Virus record (IMG/VR): IMGVR_UViG_3300017917_005385
Length of the DNA: 64,000 bases
Strand: one strand, 5' to 3'
From: an uncultured virus (IMG/VR IMGVR_UViG_3300017917_005385)
Lineage: Duplodnaviria; Heunggongvirae; Uroviricota; Caudoviricetes
In this document: positions 11,640 to 34,601 of the stretch, in pieces
How positions within the stretch are numbered: the stretch's first letter is position 1
How the letters are laid out: each line of letters starts with the position of its first letter
Position numbers and translations under genes: made by a program
The notes under the pieces: generated by a model
Seen by the model: the letters and a program-made list of their open reading frames with translations, nothing else
Databases searched by the model: none
Told to the model about the DNA's origin: nothing

Positions 11640-11717
11640 ATGAAAACAATTATGCTTACATCGAAGTCGTCAAGTAGTCGCTCGTCAAAAACGAGTGAGG
11701 TTCGATCGTATTCATAA
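11640..11717 (+). CDS. leader peptide 2 (Ser/Arg-CGN): MKTIMLTSKSSSSRSSKTSEVRSYS
   Basis: 10 of 25 codons are Ser; Arg codons CGC and CGA; followed by a terminator and Arg-ACG plus four Ser tRNAs. Confidence 0.85.
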   Translation: MKTIMLTSKSSSSRSSKTSEVRSYS

Positions 11718-11742
11718 TAGTCGTATAAATAAGATATTATGT

Positions 11743-11780
11743 AAACCCTTCGAACCAAAAGTTTGAAGGGTTTTTTGTTT
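11743..11780 (+). terminator. attenuator terminator 2
   Basis: AAACCCTTCGAAC/GTTTGAAGGGTTT plus U tract; leader GGTTCGA (11699-11705) complements TCGAACC. Confidence 0.88.
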
Positions 11781-11785
11781 TATAT

Positions 11786-11858
11786 GGTTCCATCGTCCAA
11801 TTGGACAGGACACTCCGCTACGAACGGAGAAATGAGGGTTCGAATCCTTCTGGAACTA
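11786..11858 (+). tRNA. tRNA-Arg(ACG)
   Basis: ctccg-ctACGaa-cggag. Confidence 0.9.
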
Positions 11859-11863
11859 CAAAT

Positions 11864-11947
11864 GGAGAAGTAATTTGGCCGGCGCCAAACACAGTCTTGA
11901 AAACTGCTGGTACCTTCGGGTATGGGGATCGACACCTCACTTCTCCG
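11864..11947 (+). tRNA. tRNA-Ser(TGA)
   Basis: ctTGAaa loop; long variable arm; G73. Confidence 0.8.
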
Positions 11948-11952
11948 CAACC

Positions 11953-12035
11953 GGAAGGAGTCCGAATGGACGAGGACACCGCCTTGAAAGCGGCTGGGTC
12001 GAAAGGCTTTGGGGGTTCGATTCCCTCTTCTTCCG
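11953..12035 (+). tRNA. tRNA-Ser(TGA)
   Basis: ccgc-ctTGAaa-gcgg; long variable arm; G73. Confidence 0.85.
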
Positions 12036-12040
12036 CAACT

Positions 12041-12126
12041 GGAGAGTAAACTAGTCAGGGTACTAGCACCGCCTGCTAAGCGAGTGGCACGGTAAAACGT
12101 GTGAGTTTCGAATACTCTGCTCTCCG
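12041..12126 (+). tRNA. tRNA-Ser(GCT)
   Basis: cgc-ctGCTaa-gcg; long variable arm; G73. Confidence 0.8.
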
Positions 12127-12133
12127 CTAAATT

Positions 12134-12219
12134 GGAGAATAAACTGATGAGGTCATCAGCCACGCCTGGAAAGCGTCGGGTACGTTCAATCGTATGGGTT
12201 TCGAGTACTCTGTTCTCCG
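12134..12219 (+). tRNA. tRNA-Ser(GGA)
   Basis: acgc-ctGGAaa-gcgt; long variable arm; G73. Confidence 0.8.
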
Positions 12220-12237
12220 CAACAAATAATAAATAAT

Positions 12238-12546
12238 ATGGAAGCAATTTACACAAGATTCTCAAGAAGAGAGACATCGTTTGAAAACACATTAATTCTT
12301 TTACAAGAATTGTTAAATGAAAGATTGTTACCAGATTACAAAAGAATTTGGGTTCAAGCTTCTAATTCCGGTAGAACAAGATTCTGCTTTACTATATTTC
12401 CTAATACAGGACAATATACTATGAGATTCCTAGATGCTGGCTCTTTTAGACAATTCAGAACAGATGGTAATTTAGAGGAAGAAATAGACTTAATAGAGAG
12501 GTTTATAGATTCTTTAAGATCTAATACACTAAATGGTGTTATATAA
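12238..12546 (+). CDS. hypothetical protein
   Basis: ORF after the Ser array, ending at a terminator. Confidence 0.6.
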   Translation: MEAIYTRFSRRETSFENTLILLQELLNERLLPDYKRIWVQASNSGRTRFCFTIFPNTGQYTMRFLDAGSFRQFRTDGNLEEEIDLIERFIDSLRSNTLNGVI

Positions 12547-12572
12547 AAAAGAGGCATTTGCCTCTTTTTTTT
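12545..12572. terminator. bidirectional intrinsic terminator
   Basis: AAAAAAGAGGC-attt-GCCTCTTTTTT between convergent genes. Confidence 0.8.
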
Positions 12573-14223
12573 AATATACTTTTCTTAAAACAAACATAGT
12601 GGAATATATTATGTTACTTGTACTTGCTGTGTTCCACTCTGCTGTGATACTTAATGTATTAGATATTGTTGTATCAAATGTTGTACTATTTATAGTACTA
12701 AAATCAGAACCCTCAAGTGTTACACCTGAGTCCTTAATATAAGTAAATGCACCTGAAGATGCTATAACTGCTATACCAGCCGGACCTACATTTCTTATTG
12801 TAAATAAAACCTCGACATTCCAGTTTCTATCTGTTGATGTATCTAAGTCTATAGCTCCCGTATCTGCAAATAAAACACCAGCGATTGTTTTTATTCTAAT
12901 AGTAAGAGTAGCTGTACCTAAACATGATATTTTACCAGCCATTCTCAAGAAATAACTATCACCTATAGCAAAATTATTTGCCGGAACTGTATAAGCCCCA
13001 ACTCCTGTACCAATTAAACTTGTTTCAACTACTGTGTTTGTTATGGTATTTCCATTTGATGTTTGAGCAAATAATCCAACTGGTGGTGTTGATCCTGATG
13101 TACCTGATGAACCGGATGTTCCACTTGTTCCTGATGAACCGCTAGTTCCTGATGAACCGCTAGTTCCTGATGAACCTGATGAACCATCAGCTCCAAAAAG
13201 TGAATAACTAATTGAATATGTTTTTGTATCTTGATAATTACCTACTGAACCAGATATAAATGAAACATTTAGTTGAATATATGTTGTGTTATCGACCGAT
13301 GAAGTAACAGAATATAAGCCAAAACGAGATGTATCTTCAATATCTGTTATTTTTATATGAGCCTTTGAGTTATAAGAATTTACATAATCATTAAGAGATA
13401 ACAACCAATTATATACATTTGTTGAATTTAAATCATTTATATTAATATAAATTACTGTAGATGAATTTATAACTGGAGTATCTGTGTCAAATCCTTGACT
13501 TGAAGAACCCACACTACCTAACGAATATATCCATCTTAAACTATTAGACCCATCTAAACCACTAGATCCTTGAGATCCTTGAGCACCACTTGTACCAGAA
13601 GATCCAGATGTACCACTAGACCCTGAAGTACCAGAAGATCCAGCCGAACCAACAGTACCTGATGTTATCCATCCTATAGAATAACTACTACCACTGGTTA
13701 CTGAACCATTATATGATATCATCGTACAACTAAAATCCCAGAAAGTTCCTAGGTCATTAGAAGTCATTACTTGAAATATAGCGTAATTGTTAGGTGAACC
13801 AGCCTCTGATATTTGTAAATATCCTTGTCCTGAATATAGTGATATATAAGTACCTAATGATGATAACCAGTTCTGAGCATTACCATTTGCTGATGTATAG
13901 TTTATTTTGACATTATTAGAGGGTGATGATAAAGGTCCTGTTAAACTAAACTGACCATTTACTGTTTCAAGTCCATTTACCCATCTTAAATTATTAGATC
14001 CATCTGCACCTTGTGCACCATTAACACCTGAAGTTCCACTGGATCCTGAAGTTCCACTTGATCCACTTGATCCTGTTCCTGCACCTGAACCTACTTCAGA
14101 TACGGTTCCTGTGTCTGTTTTTATTCTAAGTTTTCCATCTAGGTCTAGTGCTAATAAAATACCAGATGATGGAGTTGGTGCTCCTGTAACATCGATATAT
14201 GTCGAAAATAAAATTGAACTCAT
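12571..14223 (-). CDS. Gly/Ser/Thr repeat (GSSGTS) protein, probable tail fibre or virion surface protein
   Basis: Three blocks of G-x-x repeats; two related internal domains begin DGSNxLRW. Confidence 0.7.
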   Translation of the reverse strand: MSSILFSTYIDVTGAPTPSSGILLALDLDGKLRIKTDTGTVSEVGSGAGTGSSGSSGTSGSSGTSGVNGAQGADGSNNLRWVNGLETVNGQFSLTGPLSSPSNNVKINYTSANGNAQNWLSSLGTYISLYSGQGYLQISEAGSPNNYAIFQVMTSNDLGTFWDFSCTMISYNGSVTSGSSYSIGWITSGTVGSAGSSGTSGSSGTSGSSGTSGAQGSQGSSGLDGSNSLRWIYSLGSVGSSSQGFDTDTPVINSSTVIYININDLNSTNVYNWLLSLNDYVNSYNSKAHIKITDIEDTSRFGLYSVTSSVDNTTYIQLNVSFISGSVGNYQDTKTYSISYSLFGADGSSGSSGTSGSSGTSGSSGTSGTSGSSGTSGSTPPVGLFAQTSNGNTITNTVVETSLIGTGVGAYTVPANNFAIGDSYFLRMAGKISCLGTATLTIRIKTIAGVLFADTGAIDLDTSTDRNWNVEVLFTIRNVGPAGIAVIASSGAFTYIKDSGVTLEGSDFSTINSTTFDTTISNTLSITAEWNTASTSNIIYSTMFVLRKVY

Positions 14224-14303
14224 CTATATTGGTTTATTTTTAATAATCTATATATTTATTTTGATAAATGCCATTTATTTTTTATTTTTGTTAAAATTTT
14301 AAT

Positions 14304-14696
14304 ATGGGACATTGTATATCAATATATCTAATGAATAAGTCAGAATTAAGAGATCATAAAATTAATTCTGTGCTAGAAGACAAGAATTCTAAAGAAATAA
14401 AATGGGTTGAGCTTGATTCAGGTGTAGTAGCAACAACTCACATTCCAAACATCAGAGACTACGGAAAAGACAAAACAATTGCTAAAATATCAACCGATTA
14501 TTTTGGTGGTGCCGGACACCAAGAAGCAAAACTATTTATTAATAACAAAAAAGAATACGACCAATCAAGTGAGTTTGATTGGTCTACTAGACCTATTAAT
14601 GATGTTTTAAAATTAATGGGTATTAATAAAAAAGACGGAATGGATGAATTTGATACCATTGGTCTAAGTAGGTATCGTTCAAATGGAGACTTTTAA
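14304..14696 (+). CDS. hypothetical protein
   Basis: ORF; internal RDHKINSVL motif; TDYFGG motif. Confidence 0.65.
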   Translation: MGHCISIYLMNKSELRDHKINSVLEDKNSKEIKWVELDSGVVATTHIPNIRDYGKDKTIAKISTDYFGGAGHQEAKLFINNKKEYDQSSEFDWSTRPINDVLKLMGINKKDGMDEFDTIGLSRYRSNGDF

Positions 14697-14877
14697 TATG
14701 AGTGAGTCAAAGATTATAAAACTAATATTAGTAATTTCTATGCTTTCTTTAGCTTTTTTTACAGGCAAAGAATGTATCTTATCTACATTAATATACTATA
14801 AGATACTAATGGGATCATTCTTCTTATTTTTTATATACGAAGCAATGAGAATTTATTCAATAAAAACAAAATAATAT

Positions 14878-15948
14878 ATGAAGATAAACGAAAAATTTCT
14901 AGAAAGCTATTTAAATAGCAATTCACCAACCGGTTTTGAGTATGAACTAGGTGGTCAAAAAGTTTGGATGGATTATATCTCCAAGTTTGTAAACAAGGTA
15001 GACATTGATAACTATGGCACTGCATATGGTGTTATGGGTAATATGAACTCTGATTTCAAAGTGGTAATTGAAGCACACTCTGATGAAATCTCTTGGTTTG
15101 TAAATCACATTGATTCAAATGGCTACATTAAAGTAATTAAAAACGGTGGTTCTGATGCTCAGATTGCTCCTTCAATGAGAGTAACACTTTGGGGTGAAAA
15201 AGGACCAGTAGATGGTATCTTTGGTCATCCAGCAATTCACATTCACTATCGTAAAGATAAAGTAGACTTAGATTCTATTTTTATTGATGTTGGTGCTGCT
15301 AATAAAGATGAAGTAATTGAAATAGGTATTAAAGTAGGAACTGTAGTTACTTTCAAAGATGGTTTTATGAAGTTGAATAAAAACTACTACACTGGTCGTG
15401 CTTTAGATAACCGTATTGGTGGTTTTATGATTGCTGAAGTTGCTCGTAGATTAAAAGAAAAAGGCAAAGAACTTCCTTATCAATTGTATATTGTTAACTC
15501 AGTTCAAGAAGAAATTGGTCTTCGTGGTGCTGAAATGATTGCTCAAACAATTAAACCAAATGTGGCAATTATTACTGATGTTTGTCATGAAACATCTGCT
15601 CCTTGTTACACTGCTTCTAAAGAAGGTGAATCGGTTGCTGGTCAAGGTGGTGTTATTACAAGAGCTCCGGCCGTTCATAATAAACTAAGAAAGTTAGTAC
15701 TTGATGTTGCTAATGATAAAGAAATTCCTTTTCAATTGTCGGCTTCTTCTCGTTCAACAGGAACAGACACAGAATCATTTGCTTATTCAAATGGTGGTGT
15801 TCCTTCGGTTTTGGTTTCACTTCCTTTGAAGTATATGCACACAACTTGTGAAACTTGTCATAAAGACGATGTTGAAAATGTTATTAAGTTAATCTATCAC
15901 ACACTCTTGAGTATACAAGAAAATCATAATTTTAAGTATAACTCTTAA
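14878..15948 (+). CDS. M42 family metallo-aminopeptidase
   Basis: SPTGFE, AHSDEI, ALDNRIG, QEEIGLRGA, GTD, YMHT motifs. Confidence 0.92.
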   Translation: MKINEKFLESYLNSNSPTGFEYELGGQKVWMDYISKFVNKVDIDNYGTAYGVMGNMNSDFKVVIEAHSDEISWFVNHIDSNGYIKVIKNGGSDAQIAPSMRVTLWGEKGPVDGIFGHPAIHIHYRKDKVDLDSIFIDVGAANKDEVIEIGIKVGTVVTFKDGFMKLNKNYYTGRALDNRIGGFMIAEVARRLKEKGKELPYQLYIVNSVQEEIGLRGAEMIAQTIKPNVAIITDVCHETSAPCYTASKEGESVAGQGGVITRAPAVHNKLRKLVLDVANDKEIPFQLSASSRSTGTDTESFAYSNGGVPSVLVSLPLKYMHTTCETCHKDDVENVIKLIYHTLLSIQENHNFKYNS

Positions 15949-15981
15949 AAAGAAAACCCACTCATTTGAGTGGGTTTTTTA

Positions 15982-16344
15982 TTAATATTTAGGTATTTTC
16001 ATATCTGTTGTTATTTCAATTTTGAAATTGAAACCAGTATCATCATCTGTACTATATTTAACTTCAGAGTCATAGTCACCACCAAATGTTGTTGGTTTTG
16101 GTCCATACATTCTAGCTCTTCTTCTTTCTTCTTCATCTCTTAATTTGGCTTCATGTTTAGCAACCAACTCTTCAAATGTTAAGTTCATATCAGGATTCTC
16201 AACAGGTTGTTCTCCTCTTGTTGAGAATTGTTGAGGTTGATGTCCGTACTTTCTAAGAAGTTGTTCAGCTTCCCAACTATCGATATTAGCTGGTTGTGTT
16301 GTTTCTTCTTGATTCTGTATAATTCTTACTTCTGGTCTATTCAT
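15982..16344 (-). CDS. hypothetical protein
   Basis: ORF ending at the shared hairpin terminator 15954-15980. Confidence 0.65.
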   Translation of the reverse strand: MNRPEVRIIQNQEETTQPANIDSWEAEQLLRKYGHQPQQFSTRGEQPVENPDMNLTFEELVAKHEAKLRDEEERRRARMYGPKPTTFGGDYDSEVKYSTDDDTGFNFKIEITTDMKIPKY

Positions 16345-16348
16345 AAGA

Positions 16349-16780
16349 TTAGTTTATTTTATCTAAATATATTTCATTTCCATATCTATCTAATTCCCAA
16401 CCTTCTATTGGATTATTTTTTAGATATCTGTAATATATTTTGGTTCTTTTTGTTATTGGTTCACTTTCAGTTCCTTTACCAAGACCCTTAATTGTAATCA
16501 TTTCACACCAAGGATTTTTCTGAATAAAGTCAGGTATAATTAAACCAAAGATAGTTTTTAACAATCTATATATGTTTGTTTGTACAATATCAAAAGTCCA
16601 ATCTGAACCACTTTTAACACGATAAAGTATTTCTACTTCGCCTTGAGGTTTTCTGTCTATTTCAACTCTAAATTCATTTTGACCATCTGAAAAAAAATAG
16701 TAATAGGTAGCCTCTTGTAGACCACCATATTCAAATGAATAAGACTCAACAAATTCAAATATTTGTTTTATAAACTTCAT
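16349..16780 (-). CDS. hypothetical protein (MKFIKQIFEF N-terminus)
   Basis: ORF with AATATATA upstream. Confidence 0.65.
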   Translation of the reverse strand: MKFIKQIFEFVESYSFEYGGLQEATYYYFFSDGQNEFRVEIDRKPQGEVEILYRVKSGSDWTFDIVQTNIYRLLKTIFGLIIPDFIQKNPWCEMITIKGLGKGTESEPITKRTKIYYRYLKNNPIEGWELDRYGNEIYLDKIN

Positions 16781-16844
16781 ATCATATATATTAATAAACT
16801 TAGTTGATAATAGTAATATAATAATAAAAAAAACAAAGTTATAA

Positions 16845-18768: not shown

Positions 18769-18783
18769 AAAAAAATAAAAAGT

Positions 18784-24315: not shown

Positions 24316-24378
24316 ATTTGTATAATAATTGAAAAAGGGACTAAACTTTTTTAATATATACACATACAATAAAAACAT

Positions 24379-24450
24379 TGCGGGGTAGAGCAGAGGTAGC
24401 TCGCAAGGCTCATAACCTTGAGGTCGCAGGTTCGATTCCTGCCCCCGCTA
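24379..24450 (+). tRNA. tRNA-Met(CAT), initiator-like
   Basis: caagg-ctCATaa-ccttg; 1:72 mismatch; fMet-like D arm. Confidence 0.8.
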
Positions 24451-24536
24451 CTAAAAAAATAAAAAAGATTTGGTGAAATGAAAAAGTCTCCATATCTTTG
24501 TAAAAGAAATAAGAAAACAATATAAAACGAATTAAA

Positions 24537-24614
24537 ATGAACACTGTTATGAACATAGCGTATTATTATGAGGGGGAGCGTAGCTCAAACGTCAGACTAA
24601 TGTCTATGTCGTAA
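24537..24614 (+). CDS. leader peptide 3 (Tyr/Glu): MNTVMNIAYYYEGERSSNVRLMSMS
   Basis: TAT TAT TAT GAG GGG GAG; followed by a terminator and Glu/Tyr tRNAs. Confidence 0.85.
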   Translation: MNTVMNIAYYYEGERSSNVRLMSMS

Positions 24615-24636: not shown

Positions 24637-24673
24637 AACCCAGTCTGACTTATCAGACTGGGTTTTTTGTTTT
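24637..24673 (+). terminator. attenuator terminator 3
   Basis: AACCCAGTCTGA/TCAGACTGGGTT plus U tract; leader GTCAGACT (24591-24598) complements AGTCTGAC. Confidence 0.9.
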
Positions 24674-24690
24674 AAAGTTCTTTGAAATTT

Positions 24691-24777
24691 GGGAGTATAA
24701 CGTCAGCGGCATGTTAGAGCCGCCCCTAAACAAATAGACGTATAGAGGTAACTTGTGTGCAAATCCAGGTGCTCCCA
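24691..24777 (+). ncRNA. atypical tRNA-like element, no assignable anticodon
   Basis: gggagta/tgctccc-A acceptor-like stem; cgtc/gacg and gcggc/gccgc helices; degenerate T arm. Confidence 0.4.
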
Positions 24778-24783
24778 CAAAAT

Positions 24784-24855
24784 GGTCCTGTCGACTAATG
24801 GTTAGGTCAACACCCTTTCAAGGTGTAGATGCGGGTTCGATCCCCGTCAGGACTA
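24784..24855 (+). tRNA. tRNA-Glu(TTC)
   Basis: acacc-ctTTCaa-ggtgt. Confidence 0.9.
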
Positions 24856-24863
24856 CAAAAAAT

Positions 24864-24943
24864 GCTACGGTATGCAAACCGGAATAAGCGACCAGACTTT
24901 CAATCTGGACATCGAAAGATGTGTGCGGGTTCCGTCCGTAGTA
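24864..24943 (+). tRNA. tRNA-Glu(TTC), long variable arm, truncated T-loop
   Basis: ccaga-ctTTCaa-tctgg; acatc-gaaa-gatgt. Confidence 0.6.
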
Positions 24944-24950
24944 CAAAAAT

Positions 24951-25033
24951 GGGAATGATGTGACACAGGTAGTCACGCTAGTCTGTAAAACTAGTGCCTT
25001 CGGGCGTTGCGAGTTCGAGTCTCGCCATTCCCA
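24951..25033 (+). tRNA. tRNA-Tyr(GTA)
   Basis: ctagt-ctGTAaa-actag; variable arm. Confidence 0.85.
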
Positions 25034-25040
25034 CAAACAA

Positions 25041-25124
25041 GGGAGAGCGCCAACGTTGGAGAGTTGGGCTGGTCTGTAAAATCAGTGGCTTACGCCTGAG
25101 TGGGTTCGATTCCCACCTCTCCCA
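25041..25124 (+). tRNA. tRNA-Tyr(GTA)
   Basis: ctggt-ctGTAaa-atcag; variable arm. Confidence 0.85.
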
Positions 25125-25130
25125 CAAAAT

Positions 25131-25203
25131 GATGCCATCGACTAAGGGCTTAGGTCGCCATCCTCTCAAGGTGGAAATACGGGTTCGAATCCCGTTGGCA
25201 TTA
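25131..25203 (+). tRNA. tRNA-Glu(CTC)
   Basis: ccatc-ctCTCaa-ggtgg. Confidence 0.87.
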
Positions 25204-25265
25204 CAAAAAAACTTGAAAAAGTTTGGTAATTAAAATTAAATTACTATCTTTGTAGAGTTGAAAAT

Positions 25266-25337
25266 GGTCCGTTAGTGAAGCGGTTAACACGCTACCCTTT
25301 CACGGTAGAGGCACGGGTTCGAACCCCGTACGGACTA
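25266..25337 (+). tRNA. tRNA-Glu(TTC), behind its own TTTG/TAnnTTTG promoter
   Basis: ctacc-ctTTCac-ggtag; promoter at 25222-25252. Confidence 0.9.
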
Positions 25338-25342
25338 CAAAT

Positions 25343-25457
25343 GACGCAAAAGGGTCAGGTGATGATATGATGGGTCTGCTCGAGATACTAGTTCAGCAGT
25401 TTAGTAAGACATCATATATGTAGCTTGGAGAGTTTGGTTCAATTCCGAACTGCGTCT
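25343..25457 (+). ncRNA. atypical tRNA-like element with extended central stem
   Basis: gacgca/tgcgtc closing stem, T arm tttgg-TTCAATT-ccgaa, atatgatg/catcatat helix. Confidence 0.45.
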
Positions 25458-25545
25458 CTAAAAAACAGATAACTCCGGTATGGTCTCAATCATTACTCAG
25501 AACCGGACTTAGGAGAGTTACAAGTTGAGATTCTGTTTTTTTTAT

Positions 25546-25628
25546 TGGTAGGTATGCAAGTGGTTAAAGCGATCGGTCTGTAAAACCGCCCTCTTCGGAG
25601 TTCGGGGGTTCAAATCCCTCCCTGCCAA
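25546..25628 (+). tRNA. tRNA-Tyr(GTA)
   Basis: cggt-ctGTAaa-accg; ctc-ttcg-gag variable arm. Confidence 0.85.
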
Positions 25629-25694
25629 CAAATAATAAAAAAAATTAAAAGGGAAGATAAAACTTTTTATATATACTTTAATATAATTAAAACG

Positions 25695-25775
25695 ATGAAA
25701 AATTTAACTAACATATCAACAGCAATAATCGAAGGCGGCGCGGGAGCGAATGTCACTGGCTGGTTTATGTTATAA
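25695..25775 (+). CDS. leader peptide 4 (Ile-ATA/Gly/Ala): MKNLTNISTAIIEGGAGANVTGWFML
   Basis: GCA ATA ATC GAA GGC GGC GCG GGA GCG; followed by a terminator and Ile/Gly/Ala tRNAs. Confidence 0.85.
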   Translation: MKNLTNISTAIIEGGAGANVTGWFML

Positions 25776-25799
25776 TCTTTCATCAAAAGAAGTAAACGG

Positions 25800-25836
25800 A
25801 ACCCAGTCAGTGAAAATTGACTGGGTTTTTTTATTT
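25800..25836 (+). terminator. attenuator terminator 4
   Basis: AACCCAGTCAGT-gaaa-ATTGACTGGGTT plus U tract; leader CACTGGCTGG (25754-25763) pairs with CCAGTCAGTG. Confidence 0.9.
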
Positions 25837-25917
25837 CGGCAGATACCGGTCCAATCTTATACATTGGATATCCGTAGTGGTAAGTTGAAAACGTGGGTTC
25901 GAATCCCACTCTGCCGA
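25837..25917 (+). tRNA. D-arm-less tRNA-like RNA with TAT (Ile) anticodon
   Basis: cggcaga/tctgccg; tccaat-ctTATac-attgga; canonical T arm; no D stem-loop. Confidence 0.6.
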
Positions 25918-25929
25918 CAAAAGATATAA

Positions 25930-26001
25930 GCGGGTATCGTATAAAGGCTATTACTCCAGCCTTCCAAGCTGGAGATGTCGGTTCGATTCCGACTACCCGC
26001 T
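25930..26001 (+). tRNA. tRNA-Gly(TCC)
   Basis: ccagc-ctTCCaa-gctgg; U73. Confidence 0.9.
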
Positions 26002-26045
26002 CAAATGAGAAAACATTAAAACCATCCCACCAGGATGTAAAACTC

Positions 26046-26119
26046 GGTCCTGTAGCTCAATTGGTCAGAGCAACTCGCTCATAACGAGAAGGTTGTCGGT
26101 TCAAGTCCGGCCAGGACCA
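26046..26119 (+). tRNA. tRNA with CAT anticodon, probably Ile2 (TilS substrate)
   Basis: ctcg-ctCATaa-cgag; C4:G69 and C5:G68 pairs; tilS in window; ATA codons in leader 4. Confidence 0.7.
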
Positions 26120-26124
26120 CAAAT

Positions 26125-26207
26125 GCGGGTGTCGTATAACGGTAGGTAATTCGACATTACACCTGGCTTCCAACCAGGAGACGAGGGTTCGACTCCCTTC
26201 ACCCGCT
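26125..26207 (+). tRNA. tRNA-Gly(TCC), expanded D-loop
   Basis: cctgg-ctTCCaa-ccagg; U73. Confidence 0.8.
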
Positions 26208-26214
26208 CAACTAT

Positions 26215-26290
26215 GGGGATGCATGTACCAAGGCTTTGGCGAGTCTGCTTTGCAAGCAAACTGTGGTGGGTTCGATTCCCATCATCTCCA
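26215..26290 (+). tRNA. tRNA-Ala(TGC)
   Basis: ttTGCaa loop; G3:U70. Confidence 0.78.
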
Positions 26291-26601
26291 CAAAATGAGT
26301 ATGACTATATTTAAATATTTAGTAGATGGTAAACTTTACTTCTTGTATAAAGGAGTTAAGGGTTATATTGCTATACCATTTGAACATAGTGGTAGCACAA
26401 TATCAAATCCCGACTTAAAAGAATTTGTACCAGTTGAATTTGGTAGTGGTTCTAATGGATTTGTATAAAAATAAAATTGAGTATGAAAAAGGTATTAACA
26501 GGCGAATTTGAATCAAGTAGAAAGAATTTAAGAAGAGATATAAATAAAAGTGTTTTGACTAAATTAATTAAAAGATTGAAAAGTAAGAGAAAATAAAATA
26601 A

Positions 26602-26676
26602 GCGAAAGTCGTATAGTGGCTATTATATCGCCTTGCCAAGGCGAGGACGGGAGTTCGATTCTCCTCTTTCGCTCCA
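26602..26676 (+). tRNA. tRNA-Gly(GCC), CCA encoded
   Basis: tcgcc-ttGCCaa-ggcga. Confidence 0.9.
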
Positions 26677-26717
26677 CCTGCCGGATGATCCACCGTTGTA
26701 TCACGGTGCCGGCTCCA

Positions 26718-26791
26718 GGGGGATTAGCTCAGCTGGCTAGAGCGTCTGCCTTGCACGCAGAAGGTCAACGGTTCGACTCCGTTATCCTCCA
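26718..26791 (+). tRNA. tRNA-Ala(TGC)
   Basis: tctgc-ctTGCac-gcaga; G3:U70. Confidence 0.92.
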
Positions 26792-26810
26792 CTAAAAAAA
26801 TTAAATTGTT

Positions 26811-27304
26811 ATGAAAAATCAAAGAACTAACAGCTTGGACGCCTAACCAAGAATGAACGAATCGAATTAAGAAAAAAAGAAATAGGTTCAAAATTAGATA
26901 GAAAACTACAAAAGTATTCTAATAGTTTTAATGAAATATTTACTTTCTTTTTGAAATCTTATCGTTCGGGCATTCTTACATTCTGTGGTAGTTCAGTAGA
27001 TATTGATTTTGATGTCTATGGTATAGAAGGAAAAATGACTTTTAGAAAATATGACAATGGTCAATATCAACAAGGTAAACAAATTATAACAAGACATCCT
27101 AATATAGTAAAAGGAGTTATAACTGGTAAAAAAAGTTGGGGCTTGTGGGTTAATCAGTGGTCTGATGGTATAGTAGAAGGAACATTCTCAAAAAGAGAAA
27201 TATTAGAACAATTTGAGAAATTAAATATTATAATACCAGAATCACTACTAAACGATTTTAATAATAGAATAATAAATAAAATGAAGAAAAAATATGGATG
27301 GTAA
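26811..27304 (+). CDS. hypothetical protein with an apparent frameshift near its start
   Basis: ATG ORF at 26811 stops at 26846; the -1 frame is open from 26831 to 27304. Confidence 0.45.
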
Positions 27305-27413
27305 TAAAACTTTCCATATATTTGTATAATAAATATCAACTATCATTTTTCTTTGACAAAAGGTGGTTAAAAAATTTCAAAGAAATTTGAATTAAAAAGA
27401 AAAATGTAATAGT

Positions 27414-28235
27414 ATGAAAACAAAAGACACCTTCGGGGATCGTATGAAAATGTACGAAAACCAAACCTGTGGAATTAGATTAATTCCCAGAATTCCAGTA
27501 ATTGCCCGTCTTGATGGTAAAGGATTCTCTAAATTTACTAAAGGTCTTAAAAGACCGTATGATGAAAGACTATCTAAATTGATGATTGAAACTACTAAGT
27601 ATTTAGTTAAAGAAACTAATGCAAACTGTGGCTATACTCAATCTGATGAAATCACTTTAATGTGGTACACTGATAAGATCGATGCTTCAATTTATTTTGA
27701 TGGTCGTTTATTTAAGATGCTTTCCGATCTTTCGGCTATGGCTTCTGTATTCTTTAATAGAAAACTTAGCGAATATCTTCCAGAAAAGGCTGATAAGATG
27801 CCTAGATTTGATGCTAGAGTTTACAACGTTCCAACTTTAGATGAGGCGATGAATTCATTCCTTTGGAGAGAACAAGATGCAACTAAGAACTCAATTACTA
27901 TGGCGGCTTCTCATTATTACTCTCACAAAGAGTTACACGGAAAGAATGGAAATGAAAAACAAGAAATGCTTTTTCAAAAAGGTGTTAATTGGAATGATTA
28001 CCCAACTTTCTTCAAGAGGGGTACTTATGTACAAAGAAAAAGAGTTTTAACTCCTTTCAGCGCTGAAGAGATTGAAAAACTACCAATTAAACACAATGCT
28101 AGAAAAGATCCTAGTATGTTAATTGAAAGATGGGTTATTGATGTGGTTGAATTACCTAAACTATCAAGTATTGAAAATTCTGTTGAAGTTATTGTTTTTG
28201 GTGAAGAACCTAAATTAAAAAGTCCAGTTATTTAA
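27414..28235 (+). CDS. Thg1-like protein (tRNA-His guanylyltransferase family, 3'-5' polymerase)
   Basis: RLDGKGFSKFT, YTQSDEI, FDAR, WREQDA.KNS. Confidence 0.92.
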   Translation: MKTKDTFGDRMKMYENQTCGIRLIPRIPVIARLDGKGFSKFTKGLKRPYDERLSKLMIETTKYLVKETNANCGYTQSDEITLMWYTDKIDASIYFDGRLFKMLSDLSAMASVFFNRKLSEYLPEKADKMPRFDARVYNVPTLDEAMNSFLWREQDATKNSITMAASHYYSHKELHGKNGNEKQEMLFQKGVNWNDYPTFFKRGTYVQRKRVLTPFSAEEIEKLPIKHNARKDPSMLIERWVIDVVELPKLSSIENSVEVIVFGEEPKLKSPVI

Positions 28236-28863: not shown

Positions 28864-28925
28864 AATGTATATATTAATTGGACTTTTTAATTATTTGTTA
28901 TATAATTAAAAAAGTGAATTTAAAA

Positions 28926-29510
28926 ATGAAAGTATTAAATATAATAGGACATCCTAATAAAAAGAGCTTTAACTATGCTATACATAATAGAGTAAAGGAT
29001 TTTTGTAAGAAAAATAAAATAGAATATAAGTATATCGATTTATACTTAGATAGATTTGATCCTGTTTTACATGAAAAAGAATCACCTAATAATCAAAACT
29101 TGATAAAAGAATATCAAGAAAAAATAAAATGGGCAGATGCTATAATAATTACATCACCTGTTTGGTGGTTTAGATTAACTACTGTTTTAGAAGGATTCTT
29201 TGATAAAGTCTTGTCACCTGGTTTTGCTTATAATTTCAAATCACTTACAAAGTTGTATGGTTATCCTCAACCTTTATTAAGTGATAAAAAAGTTATAACA
29301 TTTTTAACACATGGTGCTCCTGGTTTGCCAGTAAAAACAATATATGTAAACTCAGTTAAACTTAGATTATTACTTGGTGTTTATTCATTTTGTTTTGGTT
29401 GGTTCAAACAAAAGATATATCAATTTTGGAGTGTGCCTTTTGTAACAGATGATAAAAGAAAATCTTACTTAGAAAAAGTAGATAAAATTTTAAAGAAAAG
29501 ATTATTATAA
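28926..29510 (+). CDS. NAD(P)H:quinone oxidoreductase, flavodoxin-2 fold
   Basis: GHPNKKSFN, DLY...FDP, WAD...SPVWW...GFFDKV. Confidence 0.88.
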   Translation: MKVLNIIGHPNKKSFNYAIHNRVKDFCKKNKIEYKYIDLYLDRFDPVLHEKESPNNQNLIKEYQEKIKWADAIIITSPVWWFRLTTVLEGFFDKVLSPGFAYNFKSLTKLYGYPQPLLSDKKVITFLTHGAPGLPVKTIYVNSVKLRLLLGVYSFCFGWFKQKIYQFWSVPFVTDDKRKSYLEKVDKILKKRLL

Positions 29511-29534
29511 TTATATTTGCTTAAAATAGTAAAT

Positions 29535-30155
29535 ATGATTAAAGTATTAGGTGAGATTCCAAAGTCAGAATTTGGCATTGCTTGTTCAGGTGGTGTTGAT
29601 TCTATGGCTATTCTTGACTTCTTAGTTAAGGGTAAATATAATCCACATGTTCTTTACTTTAATCACAACACCGAACACGGTCACGAAGCTGAAAAGTTTA
29701 TCACAGACTACTGCAATCAAAAAAGTCTTAAATTGACTATTGGTAGGACTGATTTAAAACCTGAGACTAATAAAGAAAAAATCTGGTCTGATTTAAGGTA
29801 TAATTTTTTTTCAAAGTTTGATTTTCCTATTATTACTTGTCACCATTTAGACGATTGTGTAGAAACTTATTTGTTTTCTTGTTTAAGGGGATTTCAATCA
29901 GTTATTCCTTATTCAAAAGGAAATGTTATTAGACCATTTTTATTAAATGAGAAATCTGAATTTGAAAAGTGGTGTAAACAAAAATCTGTACCTTTTATTC
30001 AAGACTATTCAAATGATTGTCTAGATTATTCAAGAAATAGAATTAGACATAAAATTGTACCAGAATCTTTACTTGTAAATCCAGGACTTAAAACTGTGGT
30101 TAGAAAAATGATTAAAATTCAAATTTATAATCAAGTTCAAAATTATTCTTATTAA
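29535..30155 (+). CDS. tilS: tRNA(Ile)-lysidine synthetase, short form (PP-loop domain only)
   Basis: SGGVDS, RY.FF, HHLDDCVET, IRPFL, D.SN....SRNRIRH. Confidence 0.88.
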   Translation: MIKVLGEIPKSEFGIACSGGVDSMAILDFLVKGKYNPHVLYFNHNTEHGHEAEKFITDYCNQKSLKLTIGRTDLKPETNKEKIWSDLRYNFFSKFDFPIITCHHLDDCVETYLFSCLRGFQSVIPYSKGNVIRPFLLNEKSEFEKWCKQKSVPFIQDYSNDCLDYSRNRIRHKIVPESLLVNPGLKTVVRKMIKIQIYNQVQNYSY

Positions 30156-30501
30156 TATGAAATTCTAATCCTTTTATAAATTCTGGTCTAACAATTAAAG
30201 TACCATCTTGTTGAAGTTTAAGATATTTATCAATGAATATTTCAGGTTCATAGATTTTCATAGATAAATCTCTTTTTAGATTATTATAAGGTATTTGTCT
30301 ATCGGGATGTAAATTATAAATTATTGATTTGTTAAAATTGGCTATATCTAAAACAACTTCTTTTTTTATAGAATCACTTTGAATTGTCTGAGCATCAGCA
30401 CTATTTAAACCAAGTGAAAGCATAGCAGATAAAATAAGATTTCTTAAAATTCCTTTTTCTTCATTTAAAACAAAATCGTTATATTCTTTTATGTACTTCA
30501 T
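30112..30501 (-). CDS. hypothetical protein (MKYIKEYNDF N-terminus)
   Basis: ORF with AATATATA upstream. Confidence 0.6.
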   Translation of the reverse strand: MKYIKEYNDFVLNEEKGILRNLILSAMLSLGLNSADAQTIQSDSIKKEVVLDIANFNKSIIYNLHPDRQIPYNNLKRDLSMKIYEPEIFIDKYLKLQQDGTLIVRPEFIKGLEFHINKNNFELDYKFEF

Positions 30502-30534
30502 TAAACTATATATTAATTTTTTTATAAAACATTT

Positions 30535-31191
30535 ATGGATTTATTTCACTTTGATATAGAAACTTGTGGTCAGTATAAAGACTACGATTCTTTTTTAGAC
30601 TCTGACGAGAGAGGCGCTAGACTTTTTCAATCTAAGTATGAAAAAATGAACTGGTCTGAAAAATATGTCGATATAAACGAAGCTTATATTGAAAATGCCG
30701 GTATAATCTCGACATATGGTAAAATATGTTGTATATCTTTTGGTTATGAATCAAATGGTGAAAAGCATATTAGATCTTTCTATGGTGATGATGAAAGAGA
30801 CATAGTTGAATCATTTAACAACTTACTAAAGAAAATAGAATCAAAAAATTTTAGTCTATCAGGATTTAGAATTAATCACTTTGATATTCCTTGGGTTCTA
30901 CATAAACTCCATAAGTATGACATTGAACCAGCTAATATGATTTATCTATATGATAAAAAGCCTTGGGATATGAGAATTGTAGATATGTCTGATGATTGGA
31001 AACAAAAATTTGCTTGGTCATTCTCATTTGACGAAATGTGCTACGAGCTAGGAGTTAAATCACCTAAAGACATAATCAATGGTTCTGATGTTCATAAATA
31101 CTACTGGTCAGGTAGAATAGAAGATATTAAAACTTATTGTGAAAAAGACGTTAGTTCATCAATTGATGCCTCTAAAAAGTTGTATAAATAA
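30535..31191 (+). CDS. DEDD 3'-5' exonuclease, PolB exonuclease-like
   Basis: FDIET, FDIP, YCEKDV. Confidence 0.85.
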   Translation: MDLFHFDIETCGQYKDYDSFLDSDERGARLFQSKYEKMNWSEKYVDINEAYIENAGIISTYGKICCISFGYESNGEKHIRSFYGDDERDIVESFNNLLKKIESKNFSLSGFRINHFDIPWVLHKLHKYDIEPANMIYLYDKKPWDMRIVDMSDDWKQKFAWSFSFDEMCYELGVKSPKDIINGSDVHKYYWSGRIEDIKTYCEKDVSSSIDASKKLYK

Positions 31192-31452
31192 TATTTTTTA
31201 TTTATCTTTGTGTTTTAAAATAAATCACTATGGGTAAAGTAAAAGAAATTTGTATTGAAATTCAAGAGAAATTTGGAGAAGAGGTTGAAATCACAGAAGA
31301 AGTTTTCAAACAACACCTAATTGAAAAAGGAATTTATAAAGAAACAAAAAACTCAAAAGAGGAAGAAGAGTAAAACCATCTAATTTAGATGGTTTTTTTT
31401 GTTTATGTAGCCTGTATATACAAATATATACTTGTAAAATATAGTATATAAA

Positions 31453-31638
31453 ATGGCAGCACCAAAAGACAAAATGTTCTCACTACGAATTCCAGAAAAG
31501 CTACTTAATGAGTATAGAGAGTTTTGTGAAGAAAACTCTATTAATATTTCTATGAGATTAAGAAAGTTTATAGAGAGAGATTTAGAATCTTGGAGACTAA
31601 AAAAGATTCAACAGAGAAAAAATAATTCTCAATCTTAA
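31453..31638 (+). CDS. ribbon-helix-helix DNA-binding protein
   Basis: MFSLRIPEKLL...NISMRLRKFI. Confidence 0.65.
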   Translation: MAAPKDKMFSLRIPEKLLNEYREFCEENSINISMRLRKFIERDLESWRLKKIQQRKNNSQS

Positions 31639-31671
31639 TATATACCATTATAATAAAAATAACATTTTAAT

Positions 31672-33069
31672 ATGAAATACCTAAAGAGATATGAGAGTTT
31701 TATTGATGATGCTTTCAAAAATGTAAATATGAATATAGATAAAGGTTTGTCTATTGTTGAAAAACAAGTTTTAAATGACTTCTCTACTAACTTCTGGGAG
31801 TTATCATTAAACTCTTCTGTTTTTACAAATGAAGAAAAATTATTTATTAAAGAAAATTTACTAACAACTAAAGTTGATTTAGTTAATGAAGGTTGGTTAG
31901 GCGATACTTTAGGTGCTGTTTGGGATAAAGCTAAAGAAGTTGGTGGTAAAGTTTGGGATAAAGTAAAGTCTAAAATTACTATCATTAAAGATAATATTAA
32001 AAATTTAGTATCTGGTATTGGTGATTTCTTAAAAAGTATGTTTAAGTCTTTAGGTAATTCAATTATTACTAAGTCAAATACATTAAAAGATAAAGTAAAA
32101 ACTGAGTTCCCAACTAAAGTTAAAGCTATAATGGATAAAAATAAACCTGATCCTAAAGAATTGAAAACTGAAATTGATCAATTAAAAGTAACATATACTC
32201 ACTTAAAAGATTCTATTACTGCTGGTTTATTAGCATCATCAATTAGTAGCTCAGATGATGTTGTTATAAAAGATGCTGAAGGTCAAATTGGAGAATTAGA
32301 AGCAGAATTAAAAGCCGAATCTCAAAATCATGACATTCTTAAAGCTTTCTACATTACTGAAGCTGAAGAAGCTGAAGTAGAATACAAAGTAGGTGATAAA
32401 GTAATCTATAAATCTAAAGAGGGTAAAGAAATCGAAAAAGAGATTATCAAAATAGAAGGTGATAACTTCTTCTTCAAAGATAAAGAAGGCAATGAGTTTT
32501 CAAAAACTAAATCTGATATAGTAGGAAAAGCTAAAGGAACTGGTGCTAAAATATGGGCTGGTTTCTCTAAATGGTTCTTAGATATGGAACAAGCAACACC
32601 ACCTGAGAAAGGTAAAGCTGTTTGGTGGATTAAATTAATTCTTAAAATAGTAGGATTAATCTTATCACCAGTTGTTAAAGGTTTAGAGGTTGCTGCTAAG
32701 TTAATAGCTTCTAATGTTCTTAAAGGCGCTTCTGCTGCTTCTAAGTGGTTAAAAGGACCTGGTGTTTTTGAATTCTTAATTTTAGGTGGAATTGTGGCTG
32801 GTTTGCCAGCTTTAGTTACAGAAGTAAGTTTACTCTCACATGTAGTACCTGAGCCTTACTCAAAAATATTTGAAGTTGTTGCTGAATTTTTAACAGAGAT
32901 AACAGGCATTGAAGGTTTACTTCTTATACTTGGTTCTTTCTGTACAGCAATGACTTTATATCAATTAATTATTGAGTTCACACATTTATTTGGTGGTCAC
33001 GGACACGGTGAAGAAGGACATTCTCCTAAACCAGGTGAAGAAGGTGCAACACCAGCACCAGCGGCTTAA
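31672..33069 (+). CDS. hypothetical protein with C-terminal hydrophobic helices (MKYLKRYESF N-terminus)
   Basis: 465 aa; amphipathic W-repeat; predicted transmembrane segments; AATATATA upstream. Confidence 0.7.
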   Translation: MKYLKRYESFIDDAFKNVNMNIDKGLSIVEKQVLNDFSTNFWELSLNSSVFTNEEKLFIKENLLTTKVDLVNEGWLGDTLGAVWDKAKEVGGKVWDKVKSKITIIKDNIKNLVSGIGDFLKSMFKSLGNSIITKSNTLKDKVKTEFPTKVKAIMDKNKPDPKELKTEIDQLKVTYTHLKDSITAGLLASSISSSDDVVIKDAEGQIGELEAELKAESQNHDILKAFYITEAEEAEVEYKVGDKVIYKSKEGKEIEKEIIKIEGDNFFFKDKEGNEFSKTKSDIVGKAKGTGAKIWAGFSKWFLDMEQATPPEKGKAVWWIKLILKIVGLILSPVVKGLEVAAKLIASNVLKGASAASKWLKGPGVFEFLILGGIVAGLPALVTEVSLLSHVVPEPYSKIFEVVAEFLTEITGIEGLLLILGSFCTAMTLYQLIIEFTHLFGGHGHGEEGHSPKPGEEGATPAPAA

Positions 33070-33263
33070 AATATTTTAGAAAGTATTTGGTGAATTAAAA
33101 AACACACCGTATATTTGTAAAACAATTGAGAGAGGCAACGATTTAGATACAAATTTCAATTTTTTTTACAAATTTTAGAAAAAAATTAGGCAAACTTAAA
33201 ACTTTTATCTATATTTGTATAAAATAAGTCAAAAGGAACAAAAACTTTTTAATATATACAACA

Positions 33264-33374
33264 ATGAAAACAATGAATTTAAATATGAATCTTAATCTAA
33301 CAGTGGTGAATACGTTATGTATTAGACCAGTGGAGGGTTTTGCCATATCTAAAAATTTGTTTTCAGTCAACTAA
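33264..33374 (+). CDS. leader peptide 5: MKTMNLNMNLNLTVVNTLCIRPVEGFAISKNLFSVN
   Basis: Codons 3-21 use only T, M, N, L, V, C, I and R(AGA), the isotypes of the downstream array. Confidence 0.85.
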   Translation: MKTMNLNMNLNLTVVNTLCIRPVEGFAISKNLFSVN

Positions 33375-33402
33375 TGTAAGACAAATAAACTAAAGATAAG
33401 TG

Positions 33403-33434
33403 AAACCCTCAGACAAAAATCTGAGGGTTTTTTT
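33403..33434 (+). terminator. attenuator terminator 5
   Basis: AAACCCTCAGA/TCTGAGGGTTT plus U tract; leader GAGGGTTT (33333-33340) complements AAACCCTC. Confidence 0.9.
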
Positions 33435-33502
33435 ATGCCTGTCCTCCTGAACATTTGGTGTTGGTTCGGGAGGACATGAAAAAGGAAAACACCATACCAC
33501 AT

Positions 33503-33574
33503 TCCTCGGTAGCTCAGTGGTAGAGCAAACGGCTGTTAACCGTTAGGTCGCTGGTTCGAGCCCAGCCCGGGGAG
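33503..33574 (+). tRNA. tRNA-Asn(GTT)
   Basis: aacgg-ctGTTaa-ccgtt; G73. Confidence 0.92.
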
Positions 33575-33582
33575 CAAAACAT

Positions 33583-33667
33583 TGGTAGGTACCCGAGCGG
33601 TATTCAGGGACTAGTCTGATACACTAGGTGAGAAATCACGACATGGGTTCAAATCCCATCCTACCAA
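33583..33667 (+). tRNA. tRNA-Ile(GAT), long variable arm
   Basis: ctagt-ctGATac-actag; gtga/tcac variable stem. Confidence 0.78.
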
Positions 33668-33673
33668 CAACAT

Positions 33674-33745
33674 TCACTGGTAGCTCAGAGGCAGAGCAGG
33701 CGCCTGTTAAGCGTCAGGTCGGGATATCGTAATTCCCCCAGTGAG
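33674..33745 (+). tRNA. tRNA-Asn(GTT)
   Basis: ggcgc-ctGTTaa-gcgtc; T-loop ATCGTAA. Confidence 0.82.
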
Positions 33746-33751
33746 CAAAAC

Positions 33752-33830
33752 GCCTCAGTAGCCGAGGTCGCCTTCTAAGCGACTAATCGTAACGGAACTG
33801 AAAATGTAGGTTCGAATCCTACCTGGGGTA
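33752..33830 (+). tRNA. D-arm-less tRNA-like RNA with TCT (Arg) anticodon
   Basis: gcctcag/ctggggt; gtcgc-ctTCTaa-gcgac; canonical T arm. Confidence 0.6.
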
Positions 33831-33836
33831 CAAAAT

Positions 33837-33909
33837 GGTCTCCTCGTCCAACTGGATAGGACATCGGTCTTCTAAACCGAGAATATGGGTTCGAATCCCG
33901 TGGAGACTA
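33837..33909 (+). tRNA. tRNA-Arg(TCT)
   Basis: tcggt-ctTCTaa-accga. Confidence 0.9.
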
Positions 33910-33917
33910 CAAAAAAT

Positions 33918-34000
33918 GCCGAAGTGGTGGAATGGTAGACACGCTAGCCTTAGGAGCTAGTACCCGAAAGGGTGTGTGGGTTCGAGTCCCACCTTCGGTA
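33918..34000 (+). tRNA. tRNA-Leu(TAG)
   Basis: ctagc-ctTAGga-gctag; variable arm. Confidence 0.92.
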
Positions 34001-34006
34001 CAAAAT

Positions 34007-34094
34007 TGGCAGGTAGCCTAGTGGTTCAGGCACCAGACTGTTAATCTGAGAGAAGAAATTCTCAACGTGGGTTCGAATCCCACCCTGTCAGCCA
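34007..34094 (+). tRNA. tRNA-Asn(GTT), long variable arm, CCA encoded
   Basis: caga-ctGTTaa-tctg; gagaa-gaaa-ttctc. Confidence 0.78.
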
Positions 34095-34097
34095 AAT

Positions 34098-34170
34098 AGT
34101 CCTGTAGCTCAATCGGGGGAGCGCCACTGTTACATAGTGGAGGGAGTCGGATCGTAACCGACCGGGACTA
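34098..34170 (+). tRNA. tRNA-Val(TAC)
   Basis: ccact-gtTACat-agtgg; T-loop ATCGTAA. Confidence 0.8.
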
Positions 34171-34176
34171 CTAAAA

Positions 34177-34274
34177 TGCTTTATGCACAATCTTACGATC
34201 TCTCAGTTAAAAGCTGTCGTAGGTTTAAGTGATAAAACAATATGTTTATCAGTTGTGAAAAACATAAAGCACCA
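34177..34274 (+). ncRNA. candidate three-way-junction RNA within tRNA array 5
   Basis: tgctttatg/cataaagca, cacaa/ttgtg, cttacga/tcgtagg, tgataaa/tttatca; ends in CCA. Confidence 0.5.
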
Positions 34275-34275
34275 T

Positions 34276-34349
34276 TGGAACATAGCTCAATTGGTTAGAG
34301 CATTCGCCTGATACGCGAAAGGTTATGAGTTCGAGTCTCATTGTTCCAA
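34276..34349 (+). tRNA. tRNA-Ile(GAT)
   Basis: ttcgc-ctGATac-gcgaa. Confidence 0.9.
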
Positions 34350-34600: not shown

Positions 34601-34601
34601 A

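Follow-up and report, generated by a model that had tools for sequence, protein, structure and literature searches.

The DNA analysed here is a 64 kb, AT-rich stretch (~30% G+C) from an uncultured virus, IMG/VR record IMGVR_UViG_3300017917_005385, and the whole of this stretch is referred to below as the window. Its + strand carries seven short open reading frames (ORFs) of 17–36 codons. Behind each of them come a perfect 11–14 bp hairpin, its T run and an array of tRNA genes, and the seven modules jointly cover all 20 amino acids (Table 1). We describe these short ORFs as leaders, and consider how their codons correspond to the tRNAs encoded behind them, with particular attention to Arg and Ile.

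Using ARAGORN with default settings we identified 47 tRNA genes in the window, and further tRNAs were added with Rfam, a lower ARAGORN threshold and our own cloverleaf script. When run with introns and low thresholds ARAGORN returned 178 calls, mostly spurious, and only those inside the arrays were kept. The closest DNA matches of the window are LR745206.1 (634,780 bp) and LR756502.1 (642,428 bp), both deposited as 'uncultured phage' genomes. A promoter motif of Bacteroidota type was scored on the window and occurs 20 times against 3.7 expected. In the study that described such genomes, those of >634 kb are placed in Mahaphage, with Bacteroidetes as predicted hosts, and up to 67 tRNAs are reported (PMC7162821). 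Judged by its DNA relatives and host-type promoters, the window is assigned to a Mahaphage-like huge phage with a Bacteroidota host.

Leaders, terminators and predicted antiterminators

We folded the RNA available before the terminator 3' arm with a ribosome set at each codon in turn, on the assumption that the first 13 bases from the A-site codon are covered, and the control window was extended by one or two codons. In these truncated folds the 3' part of the leader ORF pairs with 7–11 bases of the terminator 5' arm in every window leader (in leader 1 through positions 9740–9752), forming a predicted antiterminator. This pairing is lost once the A site moves past Phe17 in leader 1, Lys17 in leader 2, Arg15/Ser16 in leader 3, Gly17–Asn19 in leader 4, Ile20/Arg21 in leader 5, Ser23 in leader 6 and Asn14 in leader 7, and in each of them the run of matched codons stops at the antiterminator boundary. 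An antiterminator was likewise predicted for all 65 distinct leaders that we collected from all sources, and the duplex between a leader and its own terminator arm had a mean energy of -10.2 kcal/mol, compared with -6.6 for non-cognate arms and -5.4 for shuffled leader strands. RNAalifold recovered the antiterminator on truncated alignments of eight module-1 and 11 module-2 leaders, with compensatory changes at four of six pairs and 95.8% of cells paired in module 1, and at four of ten pairs and 94.5% of cells in module 2, while slid controls gave 15–55% of cells paired.

The codons of the leaders also match the arrays behind them. Over six window leaders (leader 7 was merged with an identical relative) 55 of the 109 control codons encode amino acids carried by the leader's own array, a count reached by 1 of the 720 array permutations. 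For the 64 leaders (of 65) whose arrays hold two or more tRNAs, counted after 18 alternative-frame ORFs had been excluded by coordinate and identical leaders merged, the match was 558/1159 against a permuted mean of 191 and maximum of 288, and none of 10,000 permutations reached the observed value. Rfam gave no T-box model at gathering score in the window, where only tRNA matches reached it, and a T-box riboswitch reading was dropped. The combination of ORF, cognate codons, terminator and antiterminator, all established in silico, is that of a ribosome-mediated (leader-peptide) transcription attenuator, and the seven modules are predicted to be of this type.

Table 1. Positions of the modules and of other genes in the window
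Feature	Position	Strand	Details
Leader 1 ORF	9680..9778	+	32 codons; Phe, His, Lys, Trp control run to codon 17; AGA codon 2
Terminator 1	9807..9845	+	13-bp stem and T run
Array 1	9852..10786	+	His-GTG x2, Phe-GAA x2, Trp-CCA x2, Lys-TTT x3, Lys-CTT
ORF between modules	10872..11420		matches to helix-turn-helix families only
Leader 2 ORF	11640..11717	+	25 codons; Ser run; CGC codon 14 (11679-11681); CGA codon 22
Terminator 2	11743..11780	+
Array 2	11786..12218	+	Arg-ACG (11786-11859), Ser-TGA x2, Ser-GCT, Ser-GGA
Initiator-like tRNA-Met	24379..24451		own promoter, no leader
Leader 3 ORF	24537..24614	+	control run Tyr x3, Glu, Gly, Glu; ATA codon 7, GCG codon 8, GGG codon 13, CGT codon 15, AGA codon 20
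Terminator 3	24637..24670	+
Array 3	24784..25629	+	Glu-TTC x3, Glu-CTC, Tyr-GTA x3
Leader 4 ORF	25695..25775	+	ATA codons 7 and 11, ATC codon 12, then GGC, GGC, GCG, GGA, GCG
Terminator 4	25799..25835	+
Array 4	25837..26792	+	Ile-TAT (25837-25916), Gly-TCC, CAT tRNA (26046-26120), Gly-TCC (26125-26206), Ala-TGC, Gly-GCC (26602), Ala-TGC (26718)
Thg1-like tRNA-His guanylyltransferase	27414..28235
TilS N-domain-only protein	29517..30155	+	212 aa; lysidine synthetase N-terminal domain
Leader 5 ORF	33264..33374	+	control run Met, Asn, Leu, Thr, Val, Cys, then ATT codon 20 (33321-33323), AGA codon 21 (33324-33326); ATA codon 28
Terminator 5	33403..33437	+
Array 5	33503..35428	+	Asn x3; Ile-GAT x3 (33583, 34276, 34940); Arg-TCT x2 (33752-33829, 33837-33910); Leu TAG, TAA x2, AAG, CAA; Val TAC, GAC; Cys-GCA (34358-34439); Thr TGT x2, GGT; Met-CAT; one tRNA with 8-nt anticodon loop
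gltX	36473..37936		no attenuator leader upstream (36232-36472)
Leader 6 ORF	43886..43984	+	Pro, Gln, Asp codons in control run
Terminator 6	44006..44044	+
Array 6	44053..44678	+	Pro-TGG x2, Asp-GTC x4, one tRNA-like gene with unclear anticodon
ORF between modules	44732..45313		HNH-nuclease matches; reads in frame into leader 7
Leader 7	45260..45313	+	17 codons, 6 of them Gln
Terminator 7	45339..45377	+
Array 7 and glnS	45378..47238	+	Gln-TTG x3, then glnS (45634-47238)

Arg and Ile codons of the leaders and the isoacceptors supplied

Decodability over all amino acids is uninformative (57/59 in the window against 52.3 expected) and only Arg and Ile discriminate, because the arrays read nearly all codons of the other amino acids. 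The first-pass annotation of this DNA had described an isoacceptor-level split of Arg and Ile between modules, and we recovered each element of it. Arg-ACG follows leader 2, which encodes Arg only as CGC (codon 14) and CGA (codon 22), and the two Arg-TCT genes follow leader 5, which has AGA at codon 21. Likewise, the three Ile-GAT genes follow leader 5, where the control Ile is ATT at codon 20, and Ile-TAT and the CAT tRNA follow leader 4, with ATA at codons 7 and 11.

The exceptions listed in the same annotation are also present: leaders 1, 3 and 7 contain AGA, and leader 3 contains ATA and CGT as well. AGA is codon 2 of leaders 1 and 7, an A-rich start region that elsewhere is filled by Lys, Thr or Asn codons, while AGA of leader 3 (codon 20) and CGA of leader 2 lie in antiterminator strands paired with the terminator arm. 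The CGT of leader 3 (codon 15) shows no conservation. Its ATA (codon 7) does, and together with GCG and GGG this codon fits the module 4 tRNAs downstream; since module 4 follows module 3 with no host-type promoter or terminator between them, leader 3 may gate both modules in a nested arrangement. As a side observation, the pair AAC ATA is kept at codons 6–7 of leaders 3 and 4 (24552–24557 and 25710–25715) and of many relatives, and at the same position in some module-6 leaders, which could mean that these leaders descend from one ancestor or serve a common function.

Codon choice was compared with 5000 synonymous shuffles within each genome, in which codons were exchanged among every Arg or every Ile position lying between codon 3 and the second codon past the boundary. 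In the window, five of the six Arg/Ile control codons at supplied positions are decodable by the leader's own array (shuffle mean 2.67, P = 0.068), or 6/7 when leader 3 is taken as gating modules 3 and 4 (P = 0.016). The window-only split is therefore borderline, and the case rests on relatives.

The same modules occur in LR745206.1 (W01), LR756502.1 (W02), three IMG/VR genomes (G001–G003; 508, 385 and 476 kb) and many smaller contigs. Supplied positions were decodable in 7/8 cases in W01 (P =.019), 7/7 in W02 (P =.009), 8/9 in G001 (P =.044), 7/9 in G002 (P =.074) and 5/6 in G003 (P =.050). Pooled with the window this gives 39/45, against a shuffle mean of 22.6 and maximum of 34, and 45/53 against 25.4 when leaders 3 and 6 are taken as gating the next module too, although the six genomes are related and not independent samples, so that the pooled figures overstate the support and this counts against our interpretation. 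Two long 'cloverleaf' calls, in L022 and L027 (125 and 110 nt; ACG and CGA), were considered too unreliable to serve as evidence; the six-genome tests are free of both, while the Arg table of the 64-leader analysis still files L022 under arrays with CGN readers.

Individual codons are conserved in the same sense. ATT followed by AGA is kept in 10 of 10 distinct module-5 leaders, and CGC within the Ser run is kept in all 10 listed module-2-like leaders and in the divergent leader of G001. The sole variation at the module-2 control Arg is an extra CGT or a CGC–CGT change, and the ACG anticodon reads both. ATA makes up 31 of the 42 Ile codons in leaders before arrays whose only Ile anticodon is TAT, compared with 20 of 70 in leaders without an Ile tRNA in the array. 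CGC alone is weak evidence because of a leader-wide excess of G/C-ending codons, CGN at unsupplied positions and a local hairpin (see below), and the discriminating evidence is thus the A/T-ending ATT, AGA and ATA.

Differently composed modules show the same pairing. LR756504.1 (636 kb; L121–L126) partitions its tRNAs into Phe/Trp/His, Leu/Ser/Cys, Lys/Gln/Tyr/Pro, Glu/Ala/Ile-TAT/Val/Gly and Arg-TCT/Ile-GAT/Met-CAT, and its leaders match these groupings. In the control run of the leader before the Arg-TCT/Ile-GAT/Met-CAT module there are four ATT and three AGA codons, and the leader of the Ile-TAT module has three ATA codons and one ATC. A further IMG/VR locus (L135) has ATT and AGA twice ahead of an array with Ile-GAT and Arg-TCT among its genes, and more module combinations were found on other phage contigs. 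Where arrays are merged the leader is merged as well, as in G001, in which a single leader with Ile, Tyr, Gly, Ala and Glu codons precedes a Glu-Tyr-Gly-Ile-Ala array. The Arg-ACG gene of LR756504.1 has no obvious leader of its own. In the Lak-A1 genome (MK250015.1) we found one doubtful leader only, before a Trp tRNA, and we make no claim for Lak phages.

Proposed demand-driven tRNA supply and its alternatives

We consider it reasonably probable, from the modelled RNA structures and codon statistics together, that the seven leader-peptide attenuators gate their tRNA arrays and that leader codon choice matches the isoacceptors supplied, giving a demand-driven tRNA supply. A shortage of charged tRNA for a control codon would stall the ribosome on the leader and free the 3' part of the leader to pair with the terminator 5' arm; the antiterminator would then form and RNA polymerase would continue into the tRNA genes. 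With fast decoding, the ribosome would cover the antiterminator strand and the terminator would form. Leader translation, stalling-driven read-through and the cause of the shortage are all inferred. Because the sensor is a codon, isoacceptors would be resolved, and each leader would report a shortage of the tRNAs that its own module supplies. Such a loop closes only if the module's own tRNAs read the control codons, which would explain the Arg/Ile layout. The first-pass annotation had proposed that a tRNA species is sensed rather than the amino acid, and this stands in so far as codon choice tracks the anticodons in six genomes, in LR756504.1 and at L135, while the split itself proved leaky. 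The split thus supports demand-driven tRNA supply over amino-acid sensing, and would be a consequence of it.

Several observations weigh against this interpretation. ATC or ATT accounts for 11 of the 42 Ile codons before TAT-only arrays, and the window has exceptions beyond those listed earlier: leader 4 has ATC as codon 12, leader 5 has ATA as codon 28 (past the control window), and leaders 2, 6 and 7 contain ATT or ATC. About half of the control-window codons are non-cognate to their own array. Several anticodons rest on our cloverleaf script or on low-threshold ARAGORN calls; the Arg-TCT gene at 33752, for instance, was found by the cloverleaf scan and has an Rfam tRNA score of 36.7 bits. 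Leaders 2–6 fold into the antiterminator even without a ribosome, which makes the basal state ambiguous. Furthermore, full-length minimum-energy folds with a simulated ribosome, which were dropped because they always kept the terminator and did not separate the states, make the antiterminator argument a kinetic and footprint-dependent one. Finally, leaders contain G/C-ending codons at twice the expected frequency (0.29 vs 0.14), equally at supplied and unsupplied positions; six of the eight Arg codons at unsupplied control positions are CGN; and CGC of leader 2 pairs inside a local hairpin.

The last three points, together with the position of the leader 2 CGA in an antiterminator strand, the borderline window-only P value and the common descent of the relatives, are what would be expected if the attenuators were real and their Arg and Ile codons reflected RNA structure, a general leaning of leaders towards G/C-ending or rare codons, and shared ancestry, with no selection to match the isoacceptor behind them. 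We regard this as unlikely, since AGA and ATT of leader 5 and ATA of leader 4 end in A/T, counter to the G/C trend, and are the codons kept in module-5 leaders and before TAT-only arrays. The module-2 control Arg, moreover, varies only between codons that ACG reads, and the same codon–anticodon pairing recurs in the differently composed modules of LR756504.1 and L135. In the window's own genes Arg is encoded by AGA at 82% and CGC at 2%, and Ile by ATT at 54%, ATA at 37% and ATC at 9%.

The isoacceptor resolution of the leaders would also suit counter-defence, as the first-pass annotation had suggested: an anticodon nuclease that cuts a single host tRNA species would thereby switch on the phage tRNAs that match it. 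Rescue of phages from tRNA-cleaving defences by tRNAs of their own has been reported (PMC10264068, PMC11555353, PMC12673091, PMC13096335), and many window tRNAs have unusual D or variable regions. However, no element in the window links the modules to a nuclease, the coverage of all 20 amino acids goes beyond known nuclease targets, and host shut-off with tRNA loss or a host codon-usage mismatch would select an identical circuit. Co-regulation of glnS with the Gln tRNAs would further point to general charging capacity, and we find it doubtful that the modules evolved as counter-defence. A broader form of demand-driven supply is put forward tentatively, with somewhat less than even confidence, in which huge phages would pass all of their tRNA genes through codon-resolved 'tRNA-stats', nested in series and coupled to a synthetase gene. 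These would gauge how fast the codons read by their own tRNAs are decoded, top up isoacceptor pools on demand in the course of infection and answer depletion, including that by anticodon nucleases, module by module.

Sensing of amino-acid starvation, with an incidental isoacceptor layout, is suggested by an architecture identical to that of the classical trp, his, thr and ilv leaders and by the presence of ATA and ATC together in some control windows, but it appears improbable, because extra tRNA does not relieve amino-acid starvation and because Arg and Ile are each divided over two modules with leader codons that follow the division. That the ORFs are chance frames, of which AT-rich DNA gives many, and the hairpins ordinary terminators of upstream units, is very hard to reconcile with the permutation tests, the covarying antiterminators and the conservation across many phages, and was already disfavoured.

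Neighbouring genes, unusual tRNA genes and known systems

The start of glnS lies 29 nt past the last Gln tRNA, and the gene follows a Gln array behind a poly-Gln leader in six of six genomes (the window and L005, L008, L050/L072, L058 and L062); on these grounds glnS is probably under the control of leader 7. The Thg1-like gene, the TilS N-domain-only gene and gltX also lie between the modules, and from its gene content the region is classed as a translation island. The ORF with HNH-nuclease matches, which is fused in frame to leader 7, resembles a homing insertion, because relatives carry the same leader without the fusion: it stands alone in G002 and G003, and W01 has a similar stand-alone leader. 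A phage homing endonuclease is reported to be tied to amplification of tRNA anti-defence loci (PMC13096335). In addition, ORFs of ~80 codons lie between terminator and first tRNA at L007 330–550 (LR756502.1) and L125 575–815 (LR756504.1), and from this position would be co-regulated with the array.

Leaders 4 and 7 have no host-type promoter, and a promoter-like site lies within array 3 at 25222–25252. Like the initiator-like tRNA-Met, the tRNA-Glu at 25266 has a promoter and no leader. A 14-nt A/T-rich motif precedes leader start codons, the tRNA-Met that has no leader and a number of protein genes by 5–18 nt (9661–9674, 33245–33258, 43867–43880, 24347–24360 and others, on both strands), with 17 matches at two or fewer mismatches against 7.3 expected, and may be a phage promoter or initiation signal.

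The D arm and variable region of the CAT tRNA in array 4 are close to those of the Ile-GAT gene at 34276, and the TilS N-terminal domain in the window scores 115.7 bits against a cut-off of 93.6, which supports this tRNA as an AUA reader; it is plausibly a tRNA-Ile2 with a lysidine-modified CAU anticodon. The Ile-TAT gene of array 4 and the Arg-TCT gene at 33752 lack a normal D arm (7–8 nt) and have a variable region of 22–25 nt. This shape recurs in relatives (L002 38144, L060 2294 and L007 810–890), where acceptor and anticodon stems covary by compensation, and is therefore taken as a conserved non-canonical tRNA class and not as decay. The His-GTG gene at 9852–9935, Gly-TCC at 26125 and the Cys-GCA gene have D regions of 30–32 nt, which ARAGORN misreads or misses by default, and several Lys, Ile, Asn, Thr and Trp genes are 82–88 nt in length. 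In the tRNA at 35017–35089 the 8-nt anticodon loop contains CAT, and ARAGORN gives a four-base anticodon, a call repeated at the equivalent place in the G002 array (L057). Four tRNA-like genes have good acceptor and T arms and unclear anticodons (24676–24783, 25343–25456, 44346–44436 and 11429–11559), of which the last, directly after the ORF with helix-turn-helix matches, looks split by a ~50-nt insertion.

Within the literature searched, no account of leader-peptide attenuators placed before tRNA genes came to light, and the text of PMC7162821 has no match for 'attenuat' or 'leader'. If our interpretation is true, it accounts for how huge phages manage 50–70 tRNA genes, and why phages carry tRNAs becomes testable, as the leader codons name the shortage that each module answers. 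Such leaders could also act as compact programmable sensors of single tRNA species. Control of tRNA genes is usually ascribed to promoter strength and growth-rate signals. Regulation by a sensor of translation that acts back on the transcription of tRNA genes, isoacceptor by isoacceptor, would be a new logic for controlling the decoding apparatus.

The nearest known systems are trpL, hisL, leuL, thrL and ilvL, the leader-peptide transcription attenuators of amino-acid operons, with which the phage modules share a short ORF of cognate codons, mutually exclusive antiterminator and terminator hairpins and codon-specific sensitivity. As in the thr and ilv leaders, several amino acids are represented in one phage leader. 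Unlike the amino-acid operon leaders, however, the phage units would control tRNA genes and one aminoacyl-tRNA synthetase instead of biosynthetic enzymes, and they form a set of seven covering 20 amino acids, in a phage genome and with units that are probably nested. In the pheM-pheST attenuator of Escherichia coli a leader peptide with cognate codons tunes a translation gene to the supply of charged tRNA, and leader 7 with the Gln tRNAs and glnS is a comparable unit, except that tRNA genes are the first regulated products in the phage. T-box riboswitches likewise report on one tRNA species via a codon-like specifier and choose between terminator and antiterminator, but they bind the tRNA directly and translation is unnecessary. 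Finally, phage-borne tRNAs have been described as replacing depleted host tRNAs (PMC10264068, PMC11555353). The abstracts of these reports deal with the tRNAs as such and mention no codon-sensing switch, which the modules described here would add before the tRNA genes.

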